Made by a program: the position numbers and the translations under genes. Under the pieces are notes generated by a model, which did not search any database, was not told the origin of the DNA, and was given only the letters and a program-made list of their open reading frames with translations. A stretch of 64,000 nucleotides of DNA from an uncultured Candidatus Saccharibacteria bacterium (lineage in GTDB: Bacteria; Patescibacteriota; Minisyncoccia; UBA6257; JAUSGH01): contig CAYHUD010000001.1 in NCBI GenBank assembly GCA_964360025.1, positions 3,922-67,921 of the forward strand. The letters are read 5' to 3'. Shown here piece after piece: positions 7,564 to 46,340 of the stretch (its first letter is position 1; every line of letters begins with the position of its first letter).

Positions 7564-7636
7564 GCGCGTGTAGCTCAACGGTTAGAGCATCGAGCTTATA
7601 CCTCGGGGGTTCATGGTTCGAATCCATGCACGCGCA
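7564..7636 (+). tRNA. tRNA-Ile, apparent anticodon UAU (loop CTTATAC); no CCA encoded
   Basis: cloverleaf: acceptor GCGCGTG/CACGCGC, D GCTC/GAGC, T-arm CATGG-TTCGAAT-CCATG. Confidence 0.65.
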
Positions 7637-7652
7637 CAAAATAGCAGGTTTT

Positions 7653-7804: not shown

Positions 7805-7832
7805 TTGACAAATCCTGTGTATTTGCTATAAT
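7805..7832 (+). promoter_or_regulatory. sigma70-type promoter TTGACA-N16-TATAAT
   Basis: consensus hexamers read directly; upstream of ORF 7891. Confidence 0.5.
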
Positions 7833-7890
7833 AGATGATGTAGTAAATTGACATTGTGGTTTCGGTTTTTTTTCAATTGGAGGGCATAAC

Positions 7891-8112
7891 ATGCCCAGCC
7901 AACTCAAGCGCAAGTTCACGACCGACGAGGGGCCGCACGCGCGGTTCCTCGAGTCCTGCCGGCACGGTGCCGATGTGGCGCCGCCGCCGCAGAAACCGTG
8001 TTCCCGCAACGCGCGGGAGCACAACTTCGGGGACTTCCACTCCGCGCGGCAAATCGCCGCCGCGGAGCGGATGGAGCAAGAAGACGAAGCCAATCAGGGC
8101 CTCGTCAACTAG
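7891..8112 (+). CDS. small hypothetical protein (73 aa), GC-rich
   Basis: GGAGGG RBS 8 nt upstream; high GC3. Confidence 0.45.
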   Translation: MPSQLKRKFTTDEGPHARFLESCRHGADVAPPPQKPCSRNAREHNFGDFHSARQIAAAERMEQEDEANQGLVN

Positions 8113-8220
8113 CAGAAGCCGAGGGAGGGGGAGACTCATTCTACTCCCTCCCTCGGCTGGGTGAAAATCTCTGTGGTTGTCGGTTGTTCGGGGAAAAAAC
8201 TCAAGAACAAGGAGAAAGAA

Positions 8221-8430
8221 ATGTCCGCTCCAGCAGCAGCACCGCGAAAGCACCAAGACGCTTTCCGGGTGGCGAACCGCGCCGCCCGCCACGCCCAGTC
8301 GGCAGGACCCAGCGTCCCGCCGGAGGAGAACCTCCCCGTGGGGAACACCGCCACGGAAGAGGCCTTCTATGGCGGTGTCATGCGCGCGATGCGCAACACC
8401 GCCCACGCGCCTGCTCGCGGAGGCGAGTAG
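8221..8430 (+). CDS. small hypothetical protein (~69 aa), GC-rich
   Basis: AAGGAG RBS before ATG 8221 (six-frame ORF 8161-8430). Confidence 0.4.
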   Translation: MSAPAAAPRKHQDAFRVANRAARHAQSAGPSVPPEENLPVGNTATEEAFYGGVMRAMRNTAHAPARGGE

Positions 8431-8522
8431 ACGCACCGCCACCAGGAGGTGGCGGCAACGAGAACTCTCAAACCAAGACCCAGGGGGTCAGAGGTATGAG
8501 AGTTCTTTTTTTATTTAAAGAA

Positions 8523-20246: not shown

Positions 20247-20275
20247 TTGACAATGTTGGGGTTTTTTGTTATAAT
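20247..20275 (+). promoter_or_regulatory. sigma70-type promoter TTGACA-N17-TATAAT
   Basis: perfect consensus hexamers upstream of ORF 20344. Confidence 0.5.
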
Positions 20276-20343
20276 GTACATTGTGTGTTCGTTGAGATTC
20301 GGCGCTTAAAAAGCGCCAAAACCCCAAGATAGGAGGTCCATCT

Positions 20344-21129
20344 GTGATCATCGAAAGAGCGGATTTCGTACCACTCAAAGAAGTAAGGAAACTTCTCTGG
20401 GAGAAGTTCGCGGAAAGAGATTTTGAGAATCTCCTCGCCGCGATGAAACGGCACCCGGAGATTATCAAAATCTACGGTCCCGATGGTTATCGTAAGCTAA
20501 ATAAGCTTGCGAATCTCGCCGTGAAAAAACAGATTCAAGTCGGGGAAATCCCGGCCGAGGATCTTGTCTGGCATCTCAATATTATCTTTGGGATGCCAGC
20601 TTCGACGGGGAGGATTATTGGACATAAGCACTCCCATGTCGACCGCGTTCACCTGATGAAACTCATCGGGCGAGCGCGACGCGAGCTCCTCGGTCTGGCC
20701 GAGGAGAGAGACCCCGCCGCTTCGCCGCCACAAATGGCACGGCCGGTGGCGGCGGTCGCCGCTCCATTCCAGCCGACCCAGCTCGTCCATGAAAAGCTGG
20801 GCGTGGTGCGCGTGACGCGTCACGCGTATGAACAGTTCGTGGAGAGATTTTACCAGGAACACAAGAAGTTTCTGGGTGATCTCTCTGACTTCTGGACTGT
20901 CCAGACACGGATGCAATTCGTGTTTGGACACACAGAAGAAGTTAAGCTTTCGCCCGAGGCACGGGTGATAAAGCTCATCATCCACCGGGAGCGGGCAAGC
21001 TTCTGGGACAACAAGGCGTATAACATGCGCTTTGTCGTCGCGGAGACTCCGGATGGTCCGGAGCTCCGCACGGCGGAGATCCCCGAGCCCTGGCGGCCGC
21101 GAAAGCCGCCAACCAGAGCCCGCCGCTAA
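20344..21129 (+). CDS. hypothetical protein (GTG start, AGGAGG RBS)
   Basis: ORF + RBS + downstream terminator. Confidence 0.5.
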   Translation: MIIERADFVPLKEVRKLLWEKFAERDFENLLAAMKRHPEIIKIYGPDGYRKLNKLANLAVKKQIQVGEIPAEDLVWHLNIIFGMPASTGRIIGHKHSHVDRVHLMKLIGRARRELLGLAEERDPAASPPQMARPVAAVAAPFQPTQLVHEKLGVVRVTRHAYEQFVERFYQEHKKFLGDLSDFWTVQTRMQFVFGHTEEVKLSPEARVIKLIIHRERASFWDNKAYNMRFVVAETPDGPELRTAEIPEPWRPRKPPTRARR

Positions 21130-21156
21130 CGCTAAGCGGCGAACGCGAAACTACGA

Positions 21157-21192
21157 CAGCCGCATCCGGGAGGATGCGGCTGTTTTCTTTTT
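21157..21192 (+). terminator. rho-independent terminator (cagccgcatccgggaggatgcggctgttttctttttt)
   Basis: hairpin + T-run. Confidence 0.7.
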
Positions 21193-27020: not shown

Positions 27021-27575
27021 ATGGCTATTAAGTACAAACAAAAACATCCTGAAACTTGTTTAGCAAAATGCCTTATGATTTTGTTAGAAAAGAAAGAGGG
27101 TAAAAAAATCGCTGATAAATATGAGATGGATTTACTCAATTATTCTTTTAGACATGAAAGGGAGAATATAGCTCGCGGTCACCTTGAGAAGGTCATAAAA
27201 GATTTTAGTATTTCTGTTAATTGGTTTGTTGATTCAAAAATATTTTTTGACTTTATTAAGGAAAAAAATATGAAAAAGAAAATAAAACTGGTTAACCAGA
27301 AAGTTAACTTGAAATTTATTGATAAAATTTTAGATAACCCGATTATCGTCTATTTGGATAGATTTTTTCTTTGGGATAAAAGTCACAGTTTGTATTACAA
27401 ATATCATTATCCCCATTTTATAATAATCAATAAAAAGATAGGTAATGATTATGAAATTATTGATCCAGATGACGGTAAAGTAAAAATAATTCCCAACAAA
27501 ACTTTATCAAAGGCTATTATTTCGCTAAGAAATTATTTATGGATCAGTCCACACATTATCAATATTAACCGCTAA
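27021..27575 (+). CDS. papain-like cysteine peptidase, C39-like domain (stand-alone); strongly AT-rich gene
   Basis: Q-x5-C (KQKHPETCLAKC), later HFIII and IIDPDDG resembling C39 Cys/His/Asp arrangement. Confidence 0.5.
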   Translation: MAIKYKQKHPETCLAKCLMILLEKKEGKKIADKYEMDLLNYSFRHERENIARGHLEKVIKDFSISVNWFVDSKIFFDFIKEKNMKKKIKLVNQKVNLKFIDKILDNPIIVYLDRFFLWDKSHSLYYKYHYPHFIIINKKIGNDYEIIDPDDGKVKIIPNKTLSKAIISLRNYLWISPHIININR

Positions 27576-37957: not shown

Positions 37958-37986
37958 TTGACAGGAGTCTTTCTGTATGGTATAAT
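37958..37986 (+). promoter_or_regulatory. sigma70-type promoter TTGACA-N17-TATAAT
   Basis: perfect hexamers upstream of ORF 38057. Confidence 0.5.
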
Positions 37987-38056
37987 GTTGAGGTTCTTTG
38001 CTGGGGAAGATAAAAATCGTGGGGTTGAATGGTAGATACAAGAATAAGGAGGCGAA

Positions 38057-38332
38057 ATGATACCAGGAATGAAGCTGACGGCGGCGGAAGAAGACCAACT
38101 TCTTTGCGCCTTTGCGAGTCTGGGACAGGAACTCGCGGAAAGATGCGAAGAGGAAATACTCCGCGAGTTGGAACAAACGAAAGAGGAGCTGGAGGCACAA
38201 GAAGGTGTCCTCTTCGCGCAAAGGTGCGCGAGCCAGATCATCGAGGGAGTTTTATGCGCGCAAAAGTGCGCGGACGAAATCGTCGAAAAGGCACCCGCGC
38301 CGCGCGGGGAAGCAACTGAACATGGGGTATAG
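38057..38332 (+). CDS. small acidic Cys-containing hypothetical protein (91 aa)
   Basis: AGGAGG RBS; perfect promoter upstream. Confidence 0.5.
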   Translation: MIPGMKLTAAEEDQLLCAFASLGQELAERCEEEILRELEQTKEELEAQEGVLFAQRCASQIIEGVLCAQKCADEIVEKAPAPRGEATEHGV

Positions 38333-38385
38333 TCACGGAGCGGATCAGGGATGACCCGCTCTTTCTTTTTTTAAAGCGTCAAATT

Positions 38386-42671: not shown

Positions 42672-42742
42672 GCCCCCATAGCTTAGTGGTAAAGCAGTTG
42701 ACTCTTAATCAATTGACCTTGGTTCGATTCCAAGTGGGGGCA
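42672..42742 (+). tRNA. tRNA-Lys (anticodon CUU)
   Basis: acceptor GCCCCCA/TGGGGGC, anticodon loop CTCTTAA, T-arm CTTGG-TTCGATT-CCAAG. Confidence 0.75.
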
Positions 42743-42774
42743 CAAAAATAATTTAGTTTTACGATAAATGATTT

Positions 42775-42812
42775 TGTCCCCTATCTCGTCCCATGGGACG
42801 AGATAGGGGACA
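42775..42812. repeat. family B palindrome (tgtcccctatctcgtcccatgggacgagataggggaca)
   Basis: direct reading. Confidence 0.85.
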
Positions 42813-42892
42813 AAATAAAAAACACCTCGGCTACAAAGACACTCTTAACAGGAGTGGTTTTGTTTTGAACGTCTTTGTTCCTGAATCCGAAA

Positions 42893-42930
42893 TGTCTACT
42901 ATCTCAAACGATCGTTTGAGATAGTAGACA
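42893..42930. repeat. family B variant palindrome with different centre (tgtctactatctcaaacgatcgtttgagatagtagaca)
   Basis: conserved outer arms ACTATCTC/GAGATAGT, centre replaced by aaacgatcgttt. Confidence 0.8.
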
Positions 42931-42988
42931 TTTGAAAATTAAAATTATCTGATGATTGGAACCGGCAAACGGGCTTGCTTTTTGTCTA

Positions 42989-43017
42989 TTGACATTTTGG
43001 GGATATGGTGCTATAAT
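42989..43017 (+). promoter_or_regulatory. sigma70-type promoter TTGACA-N17-TATAAT (distal of two tandem perfect promoters)
   Basis: direct reading. Confidence 0.5.
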
Positions 43018-43153
43018 ATATATAGCTTTATGACAACAGCGGTTGTGCCGCGCTTCTAGGGGAAGCGTAAGAACTGGCAAAAATTGAGTGTACTTTCAAT
43101 ATTCCTCACTTGCCTGCACCTTATCATCCCCTAAAAGCGCGGATTACGGAGTC

Positions 43154-43182
43154 TTGACACATAACCGCGCGTTTGCTATAAT
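43154..43182 (+). promoter_or_regulatory. sigma70-type promoter TTGACA-N17-TATAAT (proximal; ~100-nt leader to ATG 43292)
   Basis: direct reading. Confidence 0.5.
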
Positions 43183-43291
43183 GGGTAAAGTTTAACTAGT
43201 CGTACTTTGAACTATCAATCTTGGGTTTTTACGGGGCGTGCGCTCCGGAATCTAAGATTGTGAACATAGAAGTGGTTTCGAGGGTACAAAG

Positions 43292-44248
43292 ATGAACCAG
43301 CAGGACGAGACCTTTTTCTGGGGTCGCTTCATCAAGCTGGTGAAGGCGGCCTACGAGCACTTCGTCATCTCGATGACCGCCAAGGAGGCGGTCAGCAAGA
43401 TGGCGGACGAGGCCAAGAAGAGCCTCGATGCGGCCTACCGCCTCAGCGATGACGACCCCACGAGAGGGGAAGCCATCGCCGCGGGGCGGGAGCTCCGCTC
43501 CGCCGCATTCTCCGGGAAGGCGGAGGCGGAAAAGAGCCGCGCTCTGGCGCAGAAGTGCCAGAAGGAAGCGGCGAAAGAAATGCAGAGCGTCATCGCGGAC
43601 GCTCTGCACACCGATTCTGCTCTGCAGGACGCGGAGCGGGGGGCTTGCAACGGCGCGCTCGGCACCCTACAGGCGGCGGTGGCGGGGGGTTCGCTCCCGC
43701 CCGGCGGTCTCAAGACCGCAGAGCTCGTGACCCGACAGGCAGGATATCCCCGCCTCGCCGGGAACATCGCGAAGACCATGGCGGTCTTCGCGATGATCGC
43801 CACCAGAGAAAGCGATCTAGCGGCTGTCTTCCCCGGGTGGTCTGCCGGGTATTACCGGGGAGTCAGGGGGCTCCTCGGTGCTCTCCGGGACCTGGACTGG
43901 AAAATCAAGGTCACGGATCAGCGGGTCCAGGACCTGCGTAAGCAGGACCCGCGGGAAGAACTTCTGGCTGCCGAACGGCGGCTGAAGGAGCTCCAGCGGG
44001 CCGCGTCCGTGAAGGATGCGGTGCTCGCGGAGCTCCGGGTCTCCGTCCCGGAGACCTGGTTCGCCGAGGGCCCCCGGAAGCAGGGCGCTTCCGAGGCCTC
44101 CGCCCCGATCCTCCTCCACCCCGCCACGGAGGTCATCCAGATGGAGACCTCGGTGGCGAAGGATGCCGAGCGCGACGCCCGTAAGGGCAAGCGCGACGCC
44201 GAAAAGGCAGCGAAGGCGGCCAAGCGGACCAACGTCCGCGAGGCCTAG
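43292..44248 (+). CDS. hypothetical alpha-helical protein (318 aa), strongly GC-rich gene
   Basis: long ORF with GC3-rich codons; no recognisable motif. Confidence 0.55.
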   Translation: MNQQDETFFWGRFIKLVKAAYEHFVISMTAKEAVSKMADEAKKSLDAAYRLSDDDPTRGEAIAAGRELRSAAFSGKAEAEKSRALAQKCQKEAAKEMQSVIADALHTDSALQDAERGACNGALGTLQAAVAGGSLPPGGLKTAELVTRQAGYPRLAGNIAKTMAVFAMIATRESDLAAVFPGWSAGYYRGVRGLLGALRDLDWKIKVTDQRVQDLRKQDPREELLAAERRLKELQRAASVKDAVLAELRVSVPETWFAEGPRKQGASEASAPILLHPATEVIQMETSVAKDAERDARKGKRDAEKAAKAAKRTNVREA

Positions 44249-44398
44249 CCACCGACCCGTTATTGCGAGGAACTTCTTCAAGGCAATCACTCAGAAAATC
44301 AACGAGATTGCTTTGTCGAGGACTCCTCGCAATGACGGGGAAGGAAACCGCCGACCCGGGCAAGTCCACTCGACGAGCCCGGGGAACCACACCAGTAA

Positions 44399-44456
44399 CG
44401 AGCCCACCCACACACGAACGAAAACGCGTTCTGTGAGTGGGTGGGCTCAATTTTTT
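44399..44456 (+). terminator. rho-independent terminator (gagcccacccacacacgaacgaaaacgcgttctgtgagtgggtgggctc + T6)
   Basis: long hairpin + T-run. Confidence 0.65.
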
Positions 44457-44477
44457 AAGGATACATATTTGGGGATT

Positions 44478-44610
44478 AGAGATCCTTCGCAAAGCTCAGA
44501 ATGACAAAAATTGTCATCCTGAGTGTTGCACGAAGGATCTCGAAAAAGAGATTCTTCGCAAAGCTCAGAATGACAGAGCTCTGCGTTCAGAATGACGAAA
44601 TAAATAATCT
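44478..44610. repeat. family A repeat array 2
   Basis: units agagatccttcgcaaagctcagaatgaca / tgtcatcctgag..gaaggatctc / gagattcttcgcaaagctcagaatgaca / ttcagaatgacga. Confidence 0.8.
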
Positions 44611-44663
44611 TCAAATATGTGCTCTTAAACAACAAAAAATGGCCCCGGTAAAAGAGGTGAGTT

Positions 44664-45398
44664 ATGGACATCAAGGGAATCCTCAACCAGGCGTTGGAAG
44701 TCGCTGACGTGGTCTATGTCGGCGATGATCGTGAAGTTTCGGTTTTCGCTTTTTTGGAGGAACAAAAGCGACAAGTAGGCCCGGCCTACCAGGCCGCAAA
44801 TGATGTGCGTCATCACTCCAAAATCGGAATGGTGGCGCTGAAGGAGAGTAACTACGCCCTGCTCGCCCTGTGCGCTCAGCGCATCGGAGAGAACATGGCC
44901 ACTCTCCGAAGATTGAACCTCCCCGCCGATCTGCTGTGGCAGCATATCGGCGAGGCTGGGCAGGAAGCCGGGGAGTTCATGCTGGTGCGTGAGCTCCACG
45001 AACTTCTCTTCCCCCGAGGCATGGTGCCCTCGGGATCCGAGCCGTTTGAGGGGGGGATGAATATCCCCTCAGCGACCGATCTCTGCCTCGAGCCGCAGGC
45101 GTGGCTCGCGGCATTGATCGACGCCACGAGCGAGCTGGGCAAGCTCGCCGTGGAACGGATGTGCCGCGGGGACATGACCCGCGCACAACATGTGGCGACG
45201 CTCCGGAGAATGCTGGAGATTGCCCGTACGGTGTACGGCTACCTTCAGAAATTTGAAGGGGCGGTTCCCATGATCATCAACAACAGCCGTCGCAGGGGGT
45301 ATGGAAATACCTTCCGCGGCGCGATGTACCGCATCGAGCGGCTGATTGAGAACAACGAGCTCGCCCTGCTCCGGATGGTGCAGGACGACTCCAAGTAA
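44664..45398 (+). CDS. hypothetical protein (244 aa), strongly GC-rich gene
   Basis: GAGGTG RBS; terminator follows. Confidence 0.55.
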   Translation: MDIKGILNQALEVADVVYVGDDREVSVFAFLEEQKRQVGPAYQAANDVRHHSKIGMVALKESNYALLALCAQRIGENMATLRRLNLPADLLWQHIGEAGQEAGEFMLVRELHELLFPRGMVPSGSEPFEGGMNIPSATDLCLEPQAWLAALIDATSELGKLAVERMCRGDMTRAQHVATLRRMLEIARTVYGYLQKFEGAVPMIINNSRRRGYGNTFRGAMYRIERLIENNELALLRMVQDDSK

Positions 45399-45423
45399 TA
45401 ATCGCCTGCTCGCAGTTTCAGGA

Positions 45424-45452
45424 CCCCCCACGGGATGTGGGGGGTTTTCATT
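45424..45452 (+). terminator. rho-independent terminator (ccccccacgggatgtggggggttttcattttt)
   Basis: hairpin + T-run. Confidence 0.7.
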
Positions 45453-45472
45453 TTTATGGGGAGAGGATCAAG

Positions 45473-45730
45473 TAGAGATTCTTCGCGCGACGCCTGCCTG
45501 CCGGCAGGCAGGCTCAGAATGACAAGGTGTAAAGCTCAGAAAGACAGGAGGAAAACGCGAATCAGGATGACCAAATGCGACGTTTAAGATGACAGAGGGG
45601 AACCGTGTCATCCTGAGGTCTACCGAAGGATCTCGGGATTGAGATTCTTCGCAAGGCCTGCCGGCAGGCAGGCAGGCTCAGAATGACAACGTGTTGCGCT
45701 TAGAACGACAGGGCTCTGCGCTCAGAATGA
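45473..45730. repeat. family A repeat array 3
   Basis: multiple gagattcttcgc..ctcagaatgaca, tgtcatcctgag..gaaggatctc and gcctgcctgccggcaggcaggc modules. Confidence 0.85.
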
Positions 45731-45752
45731 CGAAAAAGTAATAAGATAATTA

Positions 45753-46040
45753 TCAAAGATCCAATGATAAGTCCCTGAAATCAGGATTGTTTTCTTTAAT
45801 AAGAACTTCCTTTTTAATACGCGTCCAGCCTTTTATTTTCTTCTCCGCTAGAATAGCAAACTCTGGAGAATTAAATACTTCGTAGAATATCAGCTTGTTA
45901 AGATTGTATCTCTTTGTAAACCCATCAACTAATTTTTCTTTATGTTCCTGCATCCGACGACGAAGATTGTTGGTCATACCTGTGTATAAAACAGTGTGTA
46001 TTTTATTCGTAATTATATAGACAAAATAATTTTGGTTCAT
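45753..46040 (-). CDS. GIY-YIG nuclease family protein (small, ~96 aa)
   Basis: YFVYIITNKIHTVLYTGMTNNLRRRMQEH; six-frame N-terminal extension is repeat-derived. Confidence 0.75.
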   Translation of the reverse strand: MNQNYFVYIITNKIHTVLYTGMTNNLRRRMQEHKEKLVDGFTKRYNLNKLIFYEVFNSPEFAILAEKKIKGWTRIKKEVLIKENNPDFRDLSLDL

Positions 46041-46047
46041 AAAATTT

Positions 46048-46332
46048 AGAGATTCTTCGCGCGACGCCTGCCTGCCGGCAGGCAGGCTCAGAATGACGGA
46101 GAGTGGTGTCGGCGTCCTGGAATTAAATTCTGTCATCCTGAGCGAAGCGAAGGATCTCGGAATTGAGATTCTTCGCGAAGCTCAGAATGACTAGTGAATG
46201 TTTGTCATCCTGAGACTAGTTTCTGTCATCCTGAGGTTTGACGAAGGATCTCGGAAAAGAGATTCTTCGCGAAGCTCAGAATGACAAGGTGCAAAGCTCA
46301 GAATGACAAAGTGTTGCGCTCAGAATGACAAA
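46048..46332. repeat. family A repeat array 4
   Basis: five or more modules, begins 8 nt upstream of GIY-YIG start. Confidence 0.85.
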
Positions 46333-46340
46333 AATAAAAA

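Follow-up and report, generated by a model that had tools for sequence, protein, structure and literature searches.

The GC-rich gene pair described here raises a simple question: is it a piece of foreign DNA, or a native unit whose unusual composition is maintained for a reason? The pair lies in a stretch of 64,000 nt (48% GC) of contig CAYHUD010000001.1 (positions 3,922 to 67,921 of the forward strand, assembly GCA_964360025.1) from an uncultured Candidatus Saccharibacteria bacterium. This whole stretch is referred to as the window, and all position numbers are those of the window unless a locus is named. Two co-oriented open reading frames (ORFs), ORF1 and ORF2, form a module together with promoters, terminators and leader regions (Table 1). 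An initial annotation had described them as a horizontally acquired two-gene module, mobilised together with dispersed repeats (family A) and a gene for a GIY-YIG nuclease. The two-gene module, its anomalous composition and a nuclease product have stood up to analysis, but the horizontal acquisition has not. Instead, the region is probably an old and mostly vertically inherited two-gene unit, widespread in Patescibacteria, whose second gene is predicted from sequence and structural model to encode a divergent, divalent-metal-dependent nuclease of the TRAX/C3PO type.

The assignment of ORF2 is based on both sequence and fold. A profile of ORF2 and seven homologues matched AfTRAX (3zc1) with E=3.3e-5 and NEQ131 with E=0.09, and in the alignment obtained with the same profile the motifs QExVE and DAxxEL were aligned to QELVEA and DAVGEL of AfTRAX. 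The AlphaFold2 model of ORF2 had a predicted local distance difference test score (pLDDT) of 84 and a predicted template modelling score (pTM) of 0.78. When this model was compared with the PDB using Foldseek, the best 26 matches were all C3PO, translin or TRAX structures, with a probability of 1.00 and target-normalised template modelling scores up to 0.75. The catalytic tetrad is formed by E123, E126, D193 and E197 in HsTrax and by E82, E85, D117 and E121 in NeC3PO (PMC5100593). In the ExxE…DxxxE tetrad of ORF2, D153 and E157 were invariant among 23 family sequences, and E101 and E104 were conserved in at least 90% of them. Weak matches to NCBIfam PRK14562 were also found, and some members of the family have been named 'predicted translin family RNA/ssDNA-binding protein' by the Joint Genome Institute (JGI) pipeline. 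ORF2 is thus a divergent member of the Translin/TRAX superfamily (PF01997, COG2178) that the curated Pfam model has overlooked. Neither protein had shown a recognisable motif in the initial annotation, which still holds for ORF1, without a match in any library searched, but no longer for ORF2 with its TRAX fold and catalytic tetrad.

Prokaryotic translins have been listed for archaea and Chloroflexi only (PMC5100593), and literature searches for translin in bacteria of the candidate phyla radiation or Patescibacteria, or for COG2178, yielded nothing relevant. The best matches of ORF2 in both sequence and fold are the archaeal C3POs (AfC3PO, 3ZC0 and 3ZC1; NeC3PO, 5JR9, 5JRC and 5JRE), which are TRAX-like homo-octamers. 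Like these, ORF2 is a single translin-superfamily gene in a prokaryote with an acidic metal-binding tetrad, and by analogy its product most likely forms a homo-oligomeric barrel. It differs from them in its low identity (16-19% to AfC3PO, 10-11% to NeC3PO), in an extended N-terminus that bears a small beta-hairpin, in a longer inter-helix loop at residues 116-143, and in its host, a bacterium of the Patescibacteria. In addition, a partner gene, a leader hairpin and a compositional anomaly have not been described for the archaeal genes in PMC5100593. With the eukaryotic C3PO (translin6:TRAX2), ORF2 shares the TRAX fold, the catalytic residues and a two-component arrangement. There, the partner is translin; here, the upstream protein was tested as a translin paralogue and rejected, as hhalign against the TRAX profile was negative (probability 0.5%) and a search of the PDB with a profile of the gene family at this upstream position gave no match. 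The pair is therefore not a translin and TRAX couple. Furthermore, an RNA interference pathway is lacking in the context of the module.

When the ORF2 family was used for scanning, about 30 loci were obtained, many of them from one groundwater site, which were numbered L001-L032; L001 is identical to the window. The unit was present in L002-L032, which come from Harrisonbacteria, Wolfebacteria, Saccharibacteria and further Patescibacteria. A common layout is shared by at least 13 Patescibacteria lineages. It consists of a near-consensus promoter, a GC-rich gene (gene 1, the position held by ORF1 in the window), a terminator, a leader hairpin and the TRAX gene, usually followed by genes for an M23 peptidase, UvrD and KsgA. 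All 13 loci examined had a promoter matching 10-12 of the 12 consensus positions 70-200 nt 5' of gene 1, and a strong terminator just 3' of it. In distant lineages, the order ComM, DksA-like, gene 1, TRAX, M23, UvrD, KsgA was kept wholly or partly. The closest relative, L002, shares 86% (M23) and 85% (UvrD) protein identity with the window and carries at the same position the tail of ORF1, the hairpin of the 3' untranslated region (UTR), the terminator, an uninterrupted leader hairpin and a homologue of ORF2. Across the loci, pairwise TRAX identity tracked UvrD identity (Spearman 0.50, p=0.002), and no matches to the module were found in viral contigs, phages or plasmids. The synteny with L002 and with distant lineages, the parallel divergence of TRAX and UvrD, and the absence of mobile-element matches together indicate that the unit is old and was mostly inherited vertically.

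Two observations on individual loci may be added. The terminator hairpin of ORF1 (44400-44448) is identical to positions 151-199 of L002 in 49 of 49 nt, which exceeds what a generic terminator needs, and the adjacent TRAX proteins are 58% identical. In L013 (3700-3913), L014 and L015, the TRAX gene is preceded by a small zinc-ribbon-like gene with paired Cys-x-x-Cys motifs (…KCADCGKDAQVPFEPRGDRPVYCRDCF…) and followed by genes for SecD and SecF, a different context for a TRAX nuclease.

A conserved non-coding element of the unit is a hairpin between the terminator of gene 1 and the ribosome-binding site of TRAX, which is common to 15 lineages. Its base is conserved in sequence (5'-AAAGAAUUUAU … AUAAGUUCUUU-3'). 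The upper stem is wholly different between lineages yet complementary, and loop lengths lie between about 10 nt and over 200 nt. In the trimmed alignment of the 15 lineages, 92.9% of the cells were paired, compared with 67% in shuffles and 27-55% in slid controls; the value of the native alignment is inflated by the choice of the 5' arms according to complementarity. Changes on both sides were seen in 11 of 14 pairs of the hairpin. The retention of a U·G pair by 14 of the 15 lineages speaks for a structure in the sense-strand RNA. RNAalifold recovered the same helix from an unconstrained alignment of nine short versions, and the 11-mer ATAAGTTCTTT was found once per locus, at this position only. 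In the comparison with Rfam 15, only tRNAs matched at the gathering threshold, and for the leader hairpin and the UTRs of ORF1 relaxed E-values gave just generic hairpin matches far below threshold. We consider the leader hairpin a candidate for a new cis-regulatory RNA motif. In the copy of the window, a family A array stands in place of its apical part and would have landed in a loop that tolerates insertions.

A different arrangement was seen in L007 (5340-5886), L008 (4298-4612) and L023 (3649-3976). In this clade gene 1 and TRAX are separated by a long spacer (315-547 nt), in which a large separate stem structure and a TRAX promoter of its own (TTGACA…TATAAT) replace the AAGUUCUUU hairpin.

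How might the unit work? The initial annotation was right in assigning to ORF1 two tandem perfect promoters and a leader of about 100 nt, and to each ORF its own rho-independent terminator with hairpin and T-run (Table 1). No terminator was found between the two promoters, P1 and P2, and they can therefore be regarded as tandem promoters of ORF1. Perfect TTGACA-N17-TATAAT sites are rare, with six in the whole window against a chance expectation of 0.03, and the promoter sequences argue for very high expression of ORF1. As read from the sequence, the two consensus sigma-70 promoters drive transcription of the leader of about 110 nt and of ORF1. At its 3' end this message carries a structured UTR followed by a strong intrinsic terminator, beyond which lie the conserved hairpin and then ORF2. 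Between the terminator of ORF1 and the hairpin no promoter was found, nor is there space for one. ORF2 is therefore probably transcribed mainly by read-through of the terminator, which would result in a large excess of ORF1 over ORF2. ORF1 encodes a basic, alpha-helical, fast-evolving protein whose tail is cationic and which has diverged beyond recognition in this lineage. Most likely it serves the nuclease as a nucleic-acid-binding partner or as a regulator.

Given the sequence conservation at its base, the leader hairpin is probably recognised by a conserved factor. By analogy, the hairpin could serve as a feedback or processing site for the nuclease itself or for RNase III. In E. coli, ribonuclease genes (rpsO-pnp, rnc, rne) are self-controlled at leader hairpins. 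Here as there, a nuclease gene follows a strongly expressed upstream gene and its terminator, and the 5' UTR of ORF2 contains a long conserved hairpin. Neither the proteins nor the RNA are related to those of E. coli, and cleavage or binding of the hairpin would have to be assumed for the Patescibacteria. Moreover, the hairpin base is conserved in sequence here, including the U·G pair, which suggests a specific reader.

The same arrangement of genes might be read as a conflict system, in which a TRAX-like toxin or defence nuclease is coupled to a hypervariable, over-expressed immunity, antitoxin or sensor protein encoded by gene 1, with an arms race and occasional cassette swaps among Patescibacteria. 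The layout has much of a toxin-antitoxin locus, with a far stronger upstream promoter followed by a small nuclease gene. As in type II toxin-antitoxin or nuclease-inhibitor pairs, two small co-oriented genes are found, the upstream one fast-evolving and with its product presumably in excess, the downstream one encoding a nuclease. Gene 1 has indeed evolved very fast or been replaced, as it comprises at least five families without recognisable kinship. TRAX itself is less conserved between the window and L002 than its neighbours (58% against 85% identity), and its ratio of non-synonymous to synonymous substitution rates (dN/dS) is 0.23, compared with 0.07 for neighbouring genes. NeC3PO cuts single-stranded RNA, single-stranded DNA and short duplexes, and such an activity is potentially toxic; AfC3PO prefers double-stranded RNA (PMC5100593). 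Nevertheless, we regard a conflict system as unlikely, if worth keeping in mind. The defence models of PADLOC did not match, and no defence or toxin-antitoxin family was found for ORF1 or ORF2 in PADLOC, Pfam or PHROGs. The neighbours are core genes (ComM, DksA-like, M23, UvrD, KsgA, MetK) and not those of a defence island, inheritance is largely vertical, and some lineages have TRAX without gene 1. Each gene has its own terminator, unlike in type II toxin-antitoxin pairs. Finally, the conserved leader hairpin and the GC-rich, folded mRNA described below are foreign to known toxin-antitoxin systems.

The composition that had suggested foreign DNA is real. ORF1 has a GC content of 0.67 and a GC content at third codon positions (GC3) of 0.85; the corresponding values for ORF2 are 0.60 and 0.75. 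The GC3 of the window is about 0.52, and most of the remaining approximately 50 long ORFs fall between 0.45 and 0.58. The lysine codons AAG and AAA are used 23 and 2 times in ORF1, compared with 79 and 229 times in housekeeping genes. The high GC content and the G- or C-ending codons reported in the initial annotation are thus confirmed, and the deviant composition recurred in every lineage. Gene 1 had a GC3 of 0.75-0.87 in hosts of 37-55% GC, and the gene directly upstream of TRAX was GC-rich at every locus bearing one, except L013-L015 and L025. At the Wolfebacteria locus L029, the flanking genes have a GC3 of 0.19-0.23, but gene 1 and TRAX reach 0.78 and 0.61. The enrichment ends at the borders of the coding sequences, as the leaders contain 33-50% GC and the inter-gene spacer of 85-370 nt contains 21-47%.

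To quantify mRNA folding, the native sequences were compared with synonymous-codon shuffles that keep the protein sequence and codon usage, but not the dinucleotides across codon boundaries. The folding z-scores of ORF1 and ORF2 were -6.4 and -7.6 with these shuffles and -5.7 and -6.6 with block-local shuffles, compared with +1 to -3.5 for housekeeping genes of the window. For gene 1 of eight lineages the mean z-score was -4.3, whereas 15 housekeeping controls averaged -0.97 (Mann-Whitney p=4e-5). The 3' UTR of ORF1 had a z-score of -10.2. Long inverted repeats were considered as the cause of these scores, and none were found. A comparison of mRNA structure between the window and L002 with RNAalifold was uninformative, as with two sequences the method picks compatible pairs. 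Between L007 and L008, the synonymous sites of gene 1 had diverged less than those of its neighbours: the proportion of synonymous differences (pS) was 0.45, as opposed to 0.59 in TRAX and 0.73 in UvrD.

These values also bear on a neutral or translational cause of the composition, namely a recombination hot spot with GC-biased gene conversion, or selection on the codons of an extremely highly expressed gene, with folding as a by-product of GC content. It would be in line with the very high expression suggested by the consensus promoters, with the GC-richness of other genes in the window that have consensus promoters, and with the fact that hypervariable loci are often recombination hot spots. 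However, shuffles with the same codon usage and the same protein fold much worse than the native mRNA, and folding thus exceeds the effect of composition. The confinement of GC to coding sequences is unlike a conversion tract, and synonymous divergence is lowered, not raised. G-ending and C-ending codons are both enriched in all codon boxes and not in NNY boxes alone, and well-expressed genes of the window (trigger factor, ClpP, NusA, FtsH) have an ordinary GC3. We therefore consider such a cause improbable. Folding in excess, GC enrichment limited to coding sequences, slow synonymous change and an ordinary GC3 in well-expressed genes argue against recent transfer, gene conversion and ordinary codon adaptation alike, and together they suggest that selection acts on the mRNA. 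Selection on mRNA folding appears to keep the GC and GC3 of the unit high, and these values do not appear to be left over from gene transfer. A GC-rich, folded message could be a long-lived or nuclease-resistant mRNA for a very highly expressed protein.

Other orphan genes in the window share three traits with ORF1: a promoter at or near the consensus, a GC-rich ORF and a hairpin terminator of their own. The promoter at 7805 precedes the small ORFs 7892-8113 and 8222-8431 (region 7805-8500), that at 20247 the ORF 20344-21129 (region 20247-21184; folding z=-13.3), and that at 37958 the small ORF 38058-38330 (region 37958-38375). On the minus strand, a promoter at 2107 matching 11 of 12 positions precedes an SPFH gene (1006-2058) and a G/Q-rich ORF (359-946), with folding z-scores of -9.3 and -10.5. 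The combination of traits seen in ORF1 may be genome-wide.

Does ORF1 encode a protein at all? No homologue was found by a word-indexed search or by a full HMMER scan of 1.84 billion representatives, and there was no match among PDB sequences, Pfam, PADLOC, PHROGs or NCBIfam. In a collection of 15 billion proteins, the representative of its 90%-identity cluster is an unrelated peptide of 53 aa seen on 401 contigs, which explains why the self-hit was missing and why ORF1 is invisible to searches restricted to representatives. The GC contents of its three codon positions were 0.69, 0.48 and 0.85, and a stop-free run of at least 318 codons occurred in only 12 of 2000 shuffles of the GC-rich stretch (0.6%). 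This codon periodicity, the well-spaced Shine-Dalgarno sequence and the rarity of such a frame indicate that ORF1 is coding. Among close pairs, gene 1 has a dN/dS of 0.12-0.23, which reflects purifying selection and likewise indicates a protein-coding gene. The gene-1 proteins belong to at least five families whose mutual relatedness was not recognisable by hmmsearch, and ORF1 is the sole member of one. All of them are basic, with isoelectric points of 8.1-9.8 and a tail charge of +2 to +7. The AlphaFold2 model of ORF1, made from the single sequence, was helical and of low confidence (pLDDT 60). ORF1 is thus a lineage-specific orphan and the positional equivalent of the GC-rich gene 1 elsewhere; a common ancestry of the gene-1 proteins is plausible.

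Three candidate leads on gene 1 were discarded. A '549-aa fusion' in L028 that seemed to reveal the partner is actually a type II secretion system ATPase with a spurious match in an overlapping frame. The matches of gene 1 of L008 to ProQ (E=3e-4) and of gene 1 of L021 to bAvd (E=0.04) fall in low-complexity basic regions and were not relied on. Within the coding sequence of ORF1, the gyrA RNA motif of Rfam matched below threshold at 43725-43815 (33.5 bits against a gathering score of 45, E=6e-6). The match spans a 16-bp hairpin (43762-43798) and is probably a generic match to a GC-rich hairpin.

It is very improbable that ORF1 is mainly a structured non-coding or dual-function RNA with an incidental or weakly constrained reading frame. 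The extreme over-folding of its mRNA and 3' UTR, the lack of a protein homologue in the libraries searched, the low-confidence structural model and the sub-threshold gyrA RNA match would fit such an RNA. The codon periodicity, the correct spacing of the Shine-Dalgarno sequence from the start codon, the rarity of a 318-codon frame, the protein-level purifying selection on its positional equivalents and the shared basicity and cationic tail of the gene-1 proteins speak for a coding gene, and all Rfam families stayed below threshold.

The surroundings of the unit were described correctly in the initial annotation: family A arrays bound and split the region, and a GIY-YIG gene lies within them. 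The family A motifs in these arrays span 44479-44596, 45475-45731 and 46049-46329. Further family A copies occur at about 4588, 8526, 38751 and 50439 in the window, and the product of ORF 45753-46046 matched PF01541 with E=1.4e-16 (61 bits against a cut-off of 22.6). A joint mobilisation of the module with these elements has to be abandoned. Among the 32 loci, the repeats and the GIY-YIG gene were found in L001 only. Since they are absent from L002, the closest relative, they are a separate selfish element that entered this lineage later. The element resembles other stand-alone GIY-YIG genes (PF01541) accompanied by dispersed repeats of the miniature inverted-repeat transposable element (MITE) type, in that its ORF is embedded in dispersed arrays. 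It differs in not being part of the module it flanks and in being absent from the syntenic locus of L002.

A recent foreign two-gene island, possibly host-derived cargo, that was inserted beside tRNA-Lys and mobilised with family A and GIY-YIG would account for the strongly deviant composition and codon usage, the tRNA gene directly upstream (also found upstream of gene 1 in L005), the repeats and nuclease gene that flank or split the module, and the missing homologue of ORF1, but it is already close to refuted, because the unit occupies the syntenic place in L002 without repeats or GIY-YIG, its gene order is kept across distant Patescibacteria, its GC3 excess persists in every host, even at a GC3 of 0.2, which recent transfer cannot explain, the enrichment halts at coding-sequence borders, TRAX divergence follows that of UvrD, ORF2 is remotely homologous to a known family, no integrase is present, and phage, plasmid and viral matches are lacking.

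Several points weigh against an old, mostly vertically inherited unit with a TRAX-type nuclease and a folded partner message, in addition to the limits given above for the pairing percentage and the shuffles. The Pfam Translin model (PF01997) scored ORF2 at 15.8 bits, below its gathering cut-off of 25.9 (E=0.014), and the match was limited to residues 137-181. The low identity of TRAX between the window and L002, compared with that of the neighbouring genes, could be due to allele replacement instead of fast evolution. TRAX occurs without a GC-rich gene 1 in L013-L015 and L025, and it has a separate consensus promoter in L007 and L008. The excess folding of TRAX mRNA is strong in the window but not general (mean z -2.3, p=0.066), and a few housekeeping controls reach z-scores of about -3 to -4. 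With no detectable homologue of ORF1, statements about it rest on its positional equivalents, and the position of gene 1 might also be a slot occupied by unrelated genes. Lastly, read-through, autoregulation at the hairpin, the interaction of the two proteins and the reason for the GC-richness are inferred. With these points taken into account, we still hold the explanation of the region as an ancestral two-gene unit to be probable as a whole.

Table 1. Positions of the features of the ORF1-ORF2 unit and its surroundings in the window
Feature	Position	Strand	Remarks
tRNA-Lys(CUU)	42672-42743	+	immediately upstream of the module; context only
REP-like palindrome	42772-42815		20-bp perfect; second copy at 959-996
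Promoter P1	42989-43017	+	perfect TTGACA-N17-TATAAT, extended TG
Promoter P2	43154-43182	+	perfect TTGACA-N17-TATAAT, extended TG; ends 110 nt before the ORF1 start codon
5' leader of ORF1	43183-43291	+	Shine-Dalgarno GAGGG at 43280-43284
ORF1 (gene 1 of the module)	43292-44248	+	318 aa, all-helical, isoelectric point 9.2, cationic C-terminal tail
Long hairpin in the ORF1 3' UTR	44256-44339	+	retained in L002 via compensatory changes
Intrinsic terminator of ORF1	44400-44456	+	hairpin 44400-44448, 16-bp arms, T-run
TRAX leader hairpin	44451-44632	+	arms 44451-44478 and 44605-44632; homologous to the AAAGAAUUUAU…AUAAGUUCUUU hairpin
Family A array in the apical loop of the leader hairpin	44479-44604	+	absent from L002
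ORF2, TRAX/C3PO-like translin-fold nuclease	44664-45398	+	244 aa; Shine-Dalgarno AGAGG at 44653-44657
Catalytic residues of ORF2	44964-44975 (E101, E104); 45120-45134 (D153, E157)	+	ExxE…DxxxE tetrad
Intrinsic terminator of ORF2	45420-45455	+	hairpin (45420-45448) and T-run
Family A array	45473-45731	+	outside the module; lineage-specific selfish insertion
GIY-YIG nuclease gene, small, stand-alone	45753-46046	-	97 aa; outside the module
Family A array flanking the GIY-YIG gene	46048-46332	+	outside the module

Some further features of the window were recorded. Besides family A, the window contains another family of dispersed repeats, made up of perfect palindromes at gene ends that resemble repetitive extragenic palindromic (REP) sequences. 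Their sequence is TGTCC[A/C]CTATCTCGTCC … GGACGAGATAG[T/G]GGACA, with copies at 959-996, 42772-42815 and 42890-42931. The copy at 42772-42815 probably acts as a bidirectional terminator that insulates this tRNA gene from the module. The ORF at 27021-27575 (GC 0.27, GC3 0.28) has no Pfam match and fits the picture of a recently acquired foreign gene better than the GC-rich pair does. A tRNA-Ile with anticodon UAU is encoded at 7564-7637; such a tRNA is an uncommon route for reading AUA codons in bacteria.

ORF1 and ORF2 with their regulatory regions represent an undescribed conserved bacterial operon that combines a C3PO-type nuclease, a candidate new RNA motif and a compositional signature persisting under vertical inheritance. 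Gene 1 provides an unusually clean example of synonymous sites selected for mRNA structure. Its GC3 of about 0.8 under vertical inheritance, in hosts with a GC3 as low as 0.2, also calls for caution in the use of island finders, as atypical composition does not always mean transfer.

A broader view, which we put forward as a long shot, is that base composition and RNA folding serve as a code for RNA turnover in Patescibacteria. The C3PO-like nuclease would then be a general endonuclease acting on unstructured AU-rich RNA, be it cellular or viral. A few GC-rich, heavily paired messages would escape the nuclease or be licensed by it, among them that of its own operon and those of the GC-rich orphans behind consensus promoters in the window. 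The leader hairpin would be the recognition and feedback site of the enzyme, and the hypervariable, basic gene-1 protein would be a lineage-specific RNA-binding adaptor or inhibitor.

For prokaryotic C3PO, structures are known but, to our knowledge, the biological role is not. The conserved operon offers handles on this function, namely candidates for a partner, an RNA ligand and a feedback loop. At the same time it extends the translin superfamily, previously given for archaea and Chloroflexi (PMC5100593), to the Patescibacteria.

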